This document shows, one piece after another, positions 23,985 to 32,478 of a stretch of 64,000 nt of DNA. The notes under the pieces are model-generated. The model was not told the origin of the DNA, did not search any database, and saw only the letters and a list, made by a program, of their open reading frames with translations. The DNA is from Acidobacteriota bacterium (GTDB lineage Bacteria > Acidobacteriota > Thermoanaerobaculia > Gp7-AA8), in the NCBI GenBank assembly GCA_021325515.1, contig JAJPHC010000054.1:147874-211873 (forward strand), read 5' to 3'. The position numbers and the translations under genes are program-made. Numbering within the stretch: position 1 is the first letter of the stretch; the number at the start of each line of letters is the position of its first letter.

Positions 23985-26900
23985 TCACTGTCCGTTCACC
24001 GGATTCGGCGCCGCCGCCGGCGCGCCCGTGTTTGCGACCTGGCCGCCGACCGTATCGCGATGGAACAACGCAGGTCCGATCCCCGCGCCCCAGCGCAGCG
24101 CCAGCGTGCCGGTGTAGCTCCGCGTCATCTGGTGGGAGGACGCTGCGAATGAGCTCTCGCTTCGATTGCGGTTCCAGTTCGAAGAAAGCTGCAGCGAAGC
24201 GATGGAGCTCAGCCACACCGGATGCCAGTCGACCAGACCCGAATACTGTTCGCTCGTGTTCTCCGTCTTCCGCAGGTCGTTGCGCATCTTCGTGAACGTC
24301 ACGCGCGGCTGGAGGGAGAGATGGAGCGCCGGAACTGCGTAGACCGGCTGCAATCCGAAGTTGAACGTGTCGGTCTTCCCTACGGTTGCCTGAACGCCTT
24401 CCGAGCTCGTCGCGCTCAGGTTCGCCGACAGGTTGAAGTTCGTGAAGAGTGCACCGCCGCCGGTCAGCGAAACGGAATTCGTGTCGTTCTTCGCCGTCGC
24501 ATGAATGTGATCGCGCAACTGCTGATGCGCGACACTCTGCGAGAAGCTGAAGCGGCCGGCGGTCTCGCTCAGCGACAGCGTGACACCCGCCTGCTGCCGG
24601 TCGGTGGCAGGGAGAAAGCGCGTCTTGTCGGGCGTTCCCTGATCATCGTTGTGATTGCCCGACAGCGAGAAGTTCGCACGGCTGCCGAGGCGATGGTTGT
24701 AGGTGAGATTGACGCCGGTCGCGCTGCTGTGCGACGTGGGACGCGATTGCTCCTGGCGGCGGAGCTGCGCGGAGAGCGTGCCGCCGGCGATCATCTTCGT
24801 CAGCGAGAGATCTGCGCCGGTCCGATCGGGAATGCCGCCATACGTGAAGCCGCGATTCGCCGGATTCACGAATCCGGAGTCGGTGTGGTTCAGATTGAGG
24901 CGATAGGTGAACGTCTGCCTGCTGCCGCTGATGCCGAGTCTGTAGGCGCTGCCATTGCGATTCTGCGTCCGGTCGGAAGTCATCTCGAGCTTTCCGCGCG
25001 CCGCTTCTGCGAGGATCTCGAAGCGCGGCGTGACCTTGAATCGCGTGAAGAATCCGAGTGAGCGTCCCGTCGACGCAGGCGCGTAGGCGGTGGCCAGATC
25101 TTCGACGCGCAATCCGAGAATCTTGAAGGTCAGCCGCTTCGTCCGCGGCAACTCGAAGGCGGCTGCTTCCACTTTCTGCCGCGTTGAGAACTCGCCCGGA
25201 ATCACACCCGATAAAAGCGAGTCGAACGTCGAGTAGTACGAGAGCGTGCCGAACCGGGTGCCGGCTTTGGCCAGCGCTCCGCCCTGCGAGAACGAAGCAT
25301 TGATGTACTGCGACTCTGCGAAGAACGCCGGCGGCGCATACCCGACGACTGCCTCGGGCCTGATCAACGAAGTGGATTTCGCAGCGTTGCCGAAGTTCGC
25401 GATCCAGTTGCGGCTCGACTTCGCCGTGAAATGTTCGCCGTACAGATTCACGCCATTGAGATCCGTCGTGTACTTCAGAGCCGCCGGCGCCATGCCGAGA
25501 TCCGCCTGACTCGAGACCTGCACGATCCCCTGCTGATCGGACGCATGCTCGGTGTACGTCGACGTCACGCTGGGAACGATCAGCCAGTCGCGGCGGAATG
25601 GATTCTTCTTCGCAACGACGTTCGACGGCCCGGCGTCCGCATCGACATCACCGGACAGCTCCGCACCGGCCAGCGATGCCGTCTGCACCGGCGCGTGCGC
25701 GCGGCGGACGGCGGAGCTGAGCGGAATCGGCAGAGGCGCCCAATCGCTCCACTTGATGTCGTCGAAGTCGCCCGCGTACTTCGCCTTCACTCTCCAGCGG
25801 AACGTGCTTGCGCGCAGCGCCGAGAGTTGATCGGCGGTCACGACATCGTTGTCGCCCGGCGTGTCGCGCGTCGTCAGCGAGACGAGATCGAGATCGATCT
25901 CTCCACGATGCGTGTCATACGCCTCGCACGAAATACCGTTGCGCAATTCCTCTTCCGAGCAGGCACCGACATGCTTGAAGGTATGGCCGTCCTTTTCGAT
26001 CTCCACCGTGTAGCCGATCGCTCCCGGAACGAGCGACCAGCGCAACGTGATCGGCGAGCTTCCGTCGCTTTGATCGGCCGACGCAGTCGGTGATGCAGGC
26101 GCTCCCGCTGCGGCGGCGCTGAGGTCCGGCAGCGGACCGAGAACCGTGAGATCGCTCGCACACGGCACGGCCGACATCAGCAGTTCGACTTCTGCGAAAC
26201 GCGCGAGAGCCGGCTGATCGATGACGAGCCGCAAACGATGGATACCTGCCGAAGCGCGTGGCACCGGCATCTTCGCATCCACAGGTGTCGGCTCCCCTGC
26301 CTGCACGGTCAATGTGAATGTGCTGAACGGAGTGAATGAGCCTCCATCTTCGATCTCCCAGTGTCCGGAGATCGTTCCCGTTCCGCTCGTGGCCACGATG
26401 CCATGCGCATAGACCTCGGAGTTGCCATCGAGGCACTTTCCGGAGAGCGGCGAGAGAATCGCGGCGCCGGTGACGCCGAGAGGCGCACCGATCGAGCCGC
26501 TGTCGTAGACGAAGAAATCGAGCGATGAAGAGCTGGGGCCGTTCGGCGGATCGTTCTGAATCCGGATCGAGTAGCGCCCCGCAGGCGTGCCGGGCTTCGC
26601 GCGGACGATCGCGCTGGCGAGTGTGCCCGGAACGAGCACCATCGACGACTCGACTGTGATGCGCGGATCGCTCGTGATGACACGCACGCTGCTCGCGAAA
26701 TTCTGCCCGGAGAGAAGAACCGTGCTCGCTGCGGCACCGCTCACGATGCCGTCCGGTGCGATGGCAGTCAGCACCGGCGCATTCCCCGCCGCCGCCGGTT
26801 GCACATTGACGGAGAGCGCAACGCTCTGCTGTTTGTTGAGCGACGGCGCCGACGCGGTGATGGTGATCAGCGCCAGCGAGGCGGCAGAGAGATTCGGCGC

Positions 26901-32127: not shown

Positions 32128-32478
32128 CTACGCGGCGTTGTCGGTGAGATACGCCATCGCGCTCTCGCGCGAGTCGAAGATCTTGAAGACGGTGTCGAGC
32201 TTCGTGATCTTGAGAAGCGCGAGAATGCGGTGCGAAGGCTTCACGAGGGCCATCTTCCGCTGGCGGTCTTCGAACTTCTGCAGATAGCCGATCAGTTCGC
32301 CGAGGCCGGTGGAGTCCATGTAGTTGATCGCCTCGAAATTGATCATGACCGGGCCGGTCTCGTCGTTCAGCACCTTCTCGAGGTAGCTCGAGAATTCGCG
32401 TGCGCTCTCGCCCAGCTTGATCACGCCCTGGATGTCGAGCACGGTGACGTCGTTGACGCGGTTCTTGATGATGTTCAA
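32128..32478 (-). CDS. STAS-domain anti-sigma-factor antagonist (SpoIIAA-like)
   Basis: 116 aa. Conserved DSTGLG phosphorylation-loop motif. Ends 46 bp upstream of the lectin gene. Confidence 0.8.
   Translation of the reverse strand: MNIIKNRVNDVTVLDIQGVIKLGESAREFSSYLEKVLNDETGPVMINFEAINYMDSTGLGELIGYLQKFEDRQRKMALVKPSHRILALLKITKLDTVFKIFDSRESAMAYLTDNAA

Follow-up and report, generated by a model that had tools for sequence, protein, structure and literature searches.

Group ECF43 of the extracytoplasmic function (ECF) sigma factors lacks the DAED motif in region 2.2 and carries a conserved Thr there instead, in the context QTTA or STTA (PMC13147305, PMC8999054). A sigma factor of this group becomes active only once its cognate Hanks kinase has phosphorylated the Thr, and two such pairs, EcfP/PknT of Vibrio parahaemolyticus and EcfK/PknS of Xanthomonas citri, have been characterised (PMC8999054, PMC13147305). 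One characterised pair governs an anti-predator type VI secretion system (T6SS; PMC13147305). Here we describe a 64,000-nucleotide stretch of DNA from an Acidobacteriota bacterium (contig JAJPHC010000054.1, positions 147,874 to 211,873; hereafter the window) in which an ECF43-like sigma gene and a Hanks kinase gene lie near the genes of two giant secreted proteins, a lectin protein and a protein with a predicted outer-membrane barrel. Kinase-dependent ECF sigma factors are plentiful in Acidobacteriota and Planctomycetes and, to our knowledge, almost nothing is known of their targets outside Vibrio and Xanthomonas. On balance, we consider it probable that the real unit in this part of the window is a four-gene envelope module in which a kinase-activated sigma factor would drive the two giant genes. 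The four genes are as follows.

34383..34949, plus strand: ECF sigma factor, 188 aa, ECF43-like (PF07638 E = 1.8e-59; TIGR02999 E = 4.4e-68)
34904..37327, plus strand: Hanks-type Ser/Thr kinase, 807 aa (PF00069 E = 1.1e-42; weak TPR matches)
28251..32081, minus strand: secreted modular lectin protein, 1276 aa (open reading frame and library scans)
23985..28136, minus strand: secreted barrel protein, 1383 aa, with a signal sequence, an N-domain, about six beta-rich domains and a C-terminal beta-strand region

In this genome the module is split by two unrelated conserved genes, which encode a STAS protein and a DUF360 protein. An earlier reading of the sequence alone (the original prediction) had joined the STAS gene to the two giants. 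The three open reading frames that it listed (116, 1276 and 1383 aa) are present exactly where it placed them on the minus strand. It missed the sigma and kinase genes at 34383..37327, which lie outside the interval that it flagged. Both giants, which it called secreted, have signal sequences (hydrophobic N-termini ending ...AHA/DC and ...AYA/QC), followed by homologous N-terminal domains of about 105 aa with two Cys (BLASTP, 33% identity, E = 4e-9). Apart from Ricin_B and two sub-threshold NCBIfam matches, the remaining regions of both giants matched nothing in Pfam, NCBIfam, PADLOC or PHROGs, and searches of both against PDB sequences gave nothing significant (one match at E = 0.43).

To describe how the giant genes occur elsewhere, flanks of 10 kb were inspected at each module locus. 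A gene for the C-terminal domain of the lectin protein (the C-domain) adjoins an Ig-repeat/barrel homologue in 8 distinct loci, at 25-56% identity. Barrel homologues beside C-domain genes are 28-56% identical to the window protein over 1200-1400 aa (L083, L082, L085/86, L090, L092 and L111). Gene orders at seven loci are given below, with identities to the window proteins in brackets.

L083: ECF (59%), divergent from the C-domain gene, then the barrel homologue (56% over 1281 aa)
L082: barrel homologue (38%), divergent from a C-domain gene, convergent with a second C-domain gene
L085/L086: kinase (36%), C-domain gene, barrel homologue (37%), ECF (55%)
L090: kinase and ECF (62%), divergent from the barrel homologue (28%), C-domain gene, small Cys-rich gene, kinase (38%)
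L088: C-domain gene, then ECF (55%), contig end
L092: C-domain gene, barrel homologue, ECF
L111: kinase (52%) and ECF (67%), divergent from a 184-aa ricin lectin gene, barrel homologue (32%), C-domain gene, small Cys-rich gene

The window ECF is 55-67% identical to those beside the pair in L083, L085, L088, L090, L092 and L111, and the window kinase is 36-52% identical over 700-800 aa to those in L085, L090 and L111. In the sister lineage (L091, a metagenome contig) the full layout is identical to that of the window, and the two regulators are 90% and 78% identical, respectively. ECF and kinase genes are also paired in L085, L090, L107 and L111; L107/108 has ECF, kinase and barrel genes without a C-domain gene. 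The genes of the lectin protein and its giant neighbour are thus a genuine pair, conserved in soil Acidobacteriota and as yet unnamed, and this part of the original prediction was borne out by their adjacency across loci.

The regulatory genes resemble the ECF43/Hanks pairs in several ways. The window ECF gene adjoins the gene for a transmembrane Ser/Thr kinase and is overlapped by it by 46 nt, with no anti-sigma factor gene noticed alongside. Region 2.2 of the window sigma factor (HTLQPTALVNEAYLRL) reads LQPTALV, in which QPTA replaces the acidic DAED of canonical ECFs, so that DAED is lacking and a Thr is present (QPTA compared with the QTTA/STTA consensus). The kinase has an N-terminal kinase domain, one hydrophobic segment (about aa 375-397) and a helical, TPR-like C-terminal part of about 400 aa. 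As in the described pairs, the module would control envelope or defence functions. The difference lies in the targets, which here would be two giant secreted proteins rather than polymyxin-resistance genes or a T6SS, and the phosphorylation step is putative in the window pair.

Between and beside the four genes lie others that do not belong to the module.

32128..32478, minus strand: STAS protein, 116 aa, TTG start (open reading frame and PF01740/TIGR00377)
32543..32887, minus strand: DUF360/PF04020 membrane protein, upstream of STAS
32931..34331, plus strand: metallo-beta-lactamase (MBL)-like protein, 466 aa, between the DUF360 and sigma genes (weak NCBIfam subclass B1 match)
37308..38438: saccharopine-dehydrogenase gene

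The nuoA, nuoE and nuoF genes lie downstream of the giant genes. The identities given by the original prediction to the first two proteins held, with PF01740 at E = 3.6e-16 and TIGR00377 at E = 3.2e-17 for STAS and PF04020 at E = 2e-32 for DUF360. To place these genes, we compared the window with 80 loci from related genomes that were retrieved with a NuoE query (NuoE identity 70-94%; 69 labelled Thermoanaerobaculia and 11 labelled Acidobacteria, Acidobacteriota or Candidatus Gilichinskyi). By tblastn with the window proteins, 74 of the 80 loci have STAS, at 89-98% identity in 73 of these; in 57 of the 74, no more than 310 bp separate it from nuoA. DUF360 lies directly upstream of STAS in 60 of the 80. 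By contrast, the lectin and 1383-aa proteins were found only in L002, the closest relative. The STAS-nuoA neighbourhood is conserved and the giants occur in L002 alone; therefore, the giant genes form a lineage-specific insertion of 8.2 kb that separates STAS from nuoA.

The STAS gene is not a module component but a conserved neighbour of nuoA, and the DUF360 gene is likewise no component but a conserved neighbour of STAS; both are unrelated housekeeping neighbours. The original prediction had proposed that STAS, the lectin effector and the Ig/barrel protein form one three-gene system with STAS as the regulator. The three genes are indeed co-directional with short spacers (46 nt between STAS and lectin, 114 nt between lectin and barrel), but STAS stands beside nuoA in 74 of 80 relatives without the giants, and the six other scanned groups of loci that carry the giant pair have no STAS gene. 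We therefore rejected STAS as a component or regulator of the pair, and we regard the three-gene system as scarcely credible. As a comparison, in STAS partner switching a SpoIIAA/RsbV protein acts with a SpoIIAB/RsbW kinase and a PP2C phosphatase. The window STAS protein is likewise of a single domain and has a DSTGLG motif with a phosphorylatable Ser, but neither an RsbW/SpoIIAB-type kinase nor a PP2C phosphatase turned up in a Pfam scan of the neighbouring genes, and throughout the class the STAS gene keeps its place at nuoA-E-F, with no relation to the lectin/barrel pair. The proposed triad shows that gene proximity can mislead: its best-conserved gene is the one that does not belong.

The original prediction had also called the DUF360 gene holin-like. 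A phage or holin context was rejected because the gene keeps chromosomal synteny with STAS in 60 of the 80 genomes, with no phage-related context; in PHROGs its protein has only a weak match of unknown function. A reading of the locus as an anti-phage defence system was also rejected.

On the other side of DUF360-STAS, the window has a second insertion, of 4.3 kb, with the MBL-like, ECF and kinase genes. In 42 of 59 relatives, the saccharopine-dehydrogenase gene lies within 500 bp of DUF360/STAS. Both junctions appear as insertion hot spots in this class. The STAS/nuoA junction (window 23898..23984 / 32082..32127) holds 0.7-8.2 kb of inserted DNA in 17 of 74 genomes, including L002, and the saccharopine dehydrogenase/DUF360 junction (window 32972..37307) holds more than 0.5 kb in 17 of 59. 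The loci listed for junction insertions are L018, L030, L045, L048, L054, L062-L067, L076 and L078. The cargo of the other 16 STAS/nuoA insertions differs and often includes a CadC/OmpR-like winged-helix regulator on the opposite strand. One might suppose from such hot spots, which carry other cargo in other genomes, that two unrelated large surface-protein genes hitch-hiked by chance into a variable genomic spot. This is very unlikely, as across the 8 loci, at 25-56% identity and amid unrelated flanks, the pair recurs and keeps the same regulators and upstream motif. The MBL-like protein, whose similarity to NCBIfam metallo-beta-lactamase subclass B1 (E = 6e-6) is far under the cutoff, was seen only in the L002 and L091 lineage and in no other module locus scanned; it was rejected as a module member because it is confined to this lineage.

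The shared motif is bipartite and promoter-like. TGGCCCC-N17-GCGCGTAG has exactly two matches in the 64 kb window with up to one mismatch, one upstream of each giant gene, and a terminator-like hairpin lies between these genes.

32098..32126, minus strand: promoter-like motif 1, TGGCCCC-N17-GCGCGTA(G), ending 16 nt before the lectin ATG and wholly within the 46-nt spacer
28169..28197, minus strand: promoter-like motif 2, TGGCCCC-N17-GCGCGTA(G), ending 32 nt before the barrel-protein ATG
28201..28232, minus strand: intrinsic-terminator-like hairpin with an A-tract, a GC stem of 10-12 bp and a T-tract, directly after the lectin stop

The motif was derived from the two window copies and L083 and then extended; an exact enumeration of bipartite k-mers for a shared motif was not above shuffles. 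Motif 1 is conserved in L002/L091, and an equivalent of motif 2 lies 31-34 nt upstream in L085, L087, L088, L091 and L092. Related motifs of the form TG(G/A/T)(C/G)CC(C/G)-N15-17-(G/T)CGC(G/C/T)T(T)A(G) lie 16-81 nt (mostly 31-34 nt) before C-domain or barrel starts in L083, L085, L087, L088, L091 and L092; of 12 relaxed matches in 436 kb of loci, 10 fall at such positions. Both matches in L111, which was outside the derivation of the pattern, lie directly ahead of module genes. A scan for sigma-70 promoters and terminators detected no promoter and did not pick up the lectin terminator. Folding confirmed this terminator: the RNA hairpin has a dG of -30.6 kcal/mol (z = -6.8), and 0 of 200 shuffles were as stable. 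The spacer after STAS is unrelated in genomes without the insertion; therefore, the motif arrived with the insertion. This also counts against the three-gene system, because the lectin gene has its own promoter-like motif in the very spacer that separates it from STAS. The terminator and the second motif between the giants lead us to think that the lectin and barrel genes are separate units with the same type of promoter, rather than parts of the tight three-gene unit first proposed.

The lectin protein has four parts.

31704..32024, minus strand: N-terminal two-Cys domain, about 105 aa (aa 20-126; BLASTP to the barrel-protein N-terminus)
30402..31649, minus strand: three ricin-B beta-trefoil lectin domains (aa 145-560; PF00652; NCBIfam lectin_2 E = 2.8e-34)
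29967..30359, minus strand: beta-rich linker domain (about aa 575-705), after the poly-Pro, hypervariable (sister-lineage comparison)
28254..29936, minus strand: C-domain (aa 716-1276), with a helical half, an alpha/beta half and a Cys-containing tail (HMMER, alignment A1 and AlphaFold2 (AF2))

The three ricin-B repeats, the poly-Pro linker (aa 562-572) and the single hydrophobic helix of the original prediction were all found. Ricin_B matches in 3 stretches (PF00652 E = 4.7e-60), and each of the three trefoils has QTFTF, EMWTF and NQ(K/R)WSV motifs, which are QxW-like subrepeats. By these features the lectin part is an ordinary R-type lectin, and carbohydrate binding is predicted. The hydrophobic helix has 31 residues and lies in the C-domain at about aa 951-981 (nt 29139..29231). 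Between the window and the sister lineage (L091/L002), the lectin domains are 58-90% and the C-domain core 92-98% identical, whereas the linker domain (compared over about aa 551-700, nt 29967..30430) is only about 30% identical, with indels. The linker domain looks like a swapped or fast-evolving module within an otherwise conserved lectin gene.

To find relatives of the C-domain, we scanned 1.84 billion representative proteins exhaustively with HMMER, using aa 560-1276 of the lectin protein as the query. This returned 17 proteins, of which one was a fragment of the query and one a spurious repeat protein. The C-domain family is therefore rare, with 15 true relatives in the whole set; a word-indexed homologue search found almost nothing (the self fragment, P0002 and P0004). 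Public sources name these relatives only "hypothetical protein", and the few labelled contigs are mostly from Acidobacteriota and soil-type metagenomes. The conserved C-domain of the relatives spans about 480 aa (alignment A1), and what precedes it varies. Ricin_B is fused to it in the window protein, P0003, P0007 and P0009. Ig-like repeats precede it in P0005 and, from the protein sequences, also in P0010, P0013, P0014 and P0016, and Cys-rich repeats do so in P0011, P0012 and P0017. In L111 a stand-alone 184-aa Ricin_B lectin gene (3944-4498) lies ahead of the barrel gene, inside the module, and in L089 (1-214) a ricin-containing gene lies just upstream of the C-domain gene; thus lineages differ in whether the lectin is part of the C-domain protein or has its own gene. 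In three loci (L087 2744-3241, L090 12685-13152 and L111 11434-11940), the C-domain gene is followed by one for a small secreted Cys-rich protein of 155-168 aa, with the motif C(R/G)DPWV...EC.....YG..W.S. This protein has no Pfam match and is absent from the window; its motif is repeated at the N-terminus of the C-domain proteins P0011, P0012 and P0017.

The searches of the C-terminal regions that had been suggested with the original prediction were run. Neither giant's C-terminal part matched a characterised family, be it a known hydrolase or a known porin, in Pfam, NCBIfam, PADLOC, PHROGs or PDB sequences, and searches with family profiles likewise found nothing. The AF2 model of the C-domain, from a 16-sequence alignment, has a predicted local distance difference test (pLDDT) of 66 and a predicted template modelling score of 0.61, and a Foldseek search of its fold against PDB and viral models gave nothing below E = 0.26. 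The invariant positions of the C-domain alignment are Pro, Ser, Gly, Gly, Val, Cys and Cys. There is no invariant Asp, Glu, His, Lys or Arg in the alignment, which argues against an enzyme.

These results bear on whether the lectin protein is an AB-toxin-like effector, as the original prediction had suggested. The C-domain would then be a cytotoxic or pore-forming warhead, the N-terminal modules (lectin, Ig or Cys-rich) interchangeable receptor binders and the barrel a dedicated exporter, and the sigma factor and kinase would induce the system against competitors or predators. A lectin joined to a conserved non-lectin domain is the layout of ricin-, CDT- and MTX-type toxins, and, like the secreted window protein, the toxins ricin, CdtA/C, mosquitocidal MTX and pierisins join tandem (QxW)3-type trefoils to a non-lectin domain. 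Three further points fit a toxin: the helical half of the C-domain, where amphipathic helices enclose a long hydrophobic one; a C-domain core so much better conserved than the adjacent domain; and the control of an anti-predator T6SS by a characterised ECF43 pair (PMC13147305). However, no catalytic A domain (ribosome-inactivating (RIP) N-glycosidase, CdtB nuclease or ADP-ribosyltransferase) was found outside the lectin region in Pfam, NCBIfam or PDB sequences. The non-lectin domain is instead a new family that lacks both a fold match and invariant residues of a catalytic type, and its relatives swap the lectin for Ig-like or Cys-rich modules or encode it separately. We consider a toxin unlikely.

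The 1383-aa protein is likely to end in an outer-membrane barrel, as judged from its pattern of strands.

24087..25604, minus strand: predicted outer-membrane beta-barrel region (aa ~845-1350), about 22 amphipathic strands (sequence pattern)

In a six-sequence alignment (A2), about 22 amphipathic strands of 9-12 residues each are conserved between about aa 869 and 1349. They are arranged in hairpins in which turns of 2-7 residues alternate with loops of 10-21 residues, and the region has no Cys. The last strand reads ...TLALRW (near-terminal motif ...TLALRW/GPALF) and is followed by a tail. An AF2 model of aa 835-1383, from a two-sequence alignment (A3), had about 20 paired strands by DSSP at a pLDDT of 28. 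The barrel-like C-terminus of the original prediction was thus confirmed in part, by the conserved strands. Its many Ig-like repeats were likewise confirmed only in part: units of about 100 aa, rich in beta structure, align with the Ig-repeat regions of homologues, but Pfam gave nothing at E of 0.01 or less, and the two sub-threshold NCBIfam matches, which are IPT-like, cover only aa 453-542. Both giants could alternatively be soluble secreted or surface-layer-like proteins, in which case the last part of the 1383-aa protein would fold as a beta-sandwich or beta-solenoid array instead of a membrane barrel. This seems quite unlikely to us: a Cys-free series of some 22 amphipathic strands, paired in hairpins whose connections are short and long in turn and ending in a conserved aromatic strand, is typical of outer-membrane proteins and unlike the repeat region upstream.

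Six members of the barrel family had no Pfam match at E up to 5, and a TonB-dependent receptor or porin was rejected as a reading. In outline only, the giant pair resembles type V secretion (TpsA/TpsB, autotransporters and intimin/invasin), where a large Sec-exported protein is also paired with an outer-membrane barrel protein. Intimin and invasin share Ig-like repeat stalks and lectin-type heads with the window proteins, and classical autotransporters likewise have a C-terminal barrel. By contrast, the predicted window barrel would have about 22 strands over about 500 aa, compared with 12 or 16, and the conserved module of its partner is C-terminal, not N-terminal. In addition, neither the window barrel protein nor its family matched the Pfam autotransporter, ShlB/Omp85, POTRA, two-partner secretion (TPS) or inverse-autotransporter families. 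A barrel subgroup of 1700-1900 aa has no C-domain, ECF or kinase gene within 10 kb. In L093, L099, L106 and L110 its gene is preceded by that of a protein of about 265-275 aa with a signal sequence, and in L093 and L099 it faces another secreted giant of about 1850 aa. The L093 copy of the smaller protein (6425-7237) has an Hcp-like N-terminus (PF05638 E = 1.5e-8); the giant there is at 13245-18875.

We propose the following for the four-gene module. The kinase would sense an envelope or extracellular cue through its extracytoplasmic TPR-like part and, by analogy with the characterised pairs, phosphorylate the Thr within QPTA in region 2.2 of the sigma factor. The phosphorylated sigma factor would bind RNA polymerase and fire the two TGGCCCC-N17-GCGCGTAG promoters, which makes it the presumed reader of the motif. 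Both giants would be exported by Sec. The 1383-aa protein, as a predicted outer-membrane anchor or exporter, would insert in the outer membrane and dock or export the lectin protein, and this physical partnership would run through the conserved C-domain. The glycan-binding heads may then be displayed on the cell surface or released from it. We tentatively favour regulated surface display, with adhesion or glycan capture as the role, and place it above toxicity though short of probable, because the architecture is conserved at the C-terminus and variable at the N-terminus, the invariant residues are not of a catalytic type and no immunity gene is present. A more far-reaching suggestion, which we regard as doubtful, is that this is a new outer-membrane export and display route of Acidobacteriota. 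In such a route the barrel would recognise the C-domain, the interchangeable heads (ricin, Ig-like or Cys-rich) would be cargo, and a phosphorylated ECF would switch the system on through its dedicated promoter.

Several observations weigh against the four-gene module. The relaxed motif was refined partly on the sequences in which it was then counted, and its matches were in total no more numerous than in shuffles, so that the striking feature is their positions only. In the window, the sigma gene itself is not preceded by the motif. The sigma factor, which appears ECF43-like by its motif and matches PF07638 and TIGR02999, may instead belong to another kinase-linked group (ECF59-62, 217 or 283), and many paralogous ECF/kinase pairs exist in Acidobacteriota. 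L082 has neither an ECF nor a kinase gene within 10 kb. In L093, L097, L099, L106 and L110, members of the barrel family stand without a C-domain, ECF or kinase gene within the same distance, which indicates that the partnership is not obligate. A C-domain of 480 aa is large for a mere docking module, and the barrel fold is read from the sequence pattern only because the AF2 model had so low a pLDDT.

The combination of genes, both protein families and the promoter motif are undescribed in the libraries and literature searched, whereas the regulatory half is of a known kind. The candidate regulon is compact and conserved, with a single sigma factor and kinase and two target genes that share a promoter motif, and the two protein families defined here are named in no database. 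The lectin heads on one of these families point to regulated glycan recognition at the surface of dominant, poorly cultured soil bacteria. The rarity of the C-domain family limits the breadth of these results, not their mechanistic interest.

Some further observations concern the genes around the insertion. STAS is always just upstream of a nuoA-nuoE-nuoF cluster without intervening nuoB, nuoC or nuoD (the window and L003-L081), and it is 89-98% identical in 73 genomes in which NuoE is only 70-81% identical. An ultra-conserved STAS gene is thus tied to part of complex I. A small cytochrome c of multihaem type (PF02276-like, E = 3e-12) is encoded directly after nuoF (21225..21650, minus strand). 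A nuoL-like antiporter subunit is encoded 20 kb away on the opposite strand (44452..46353, plus strand), and the complex I genes appear to be scattered in this organism.

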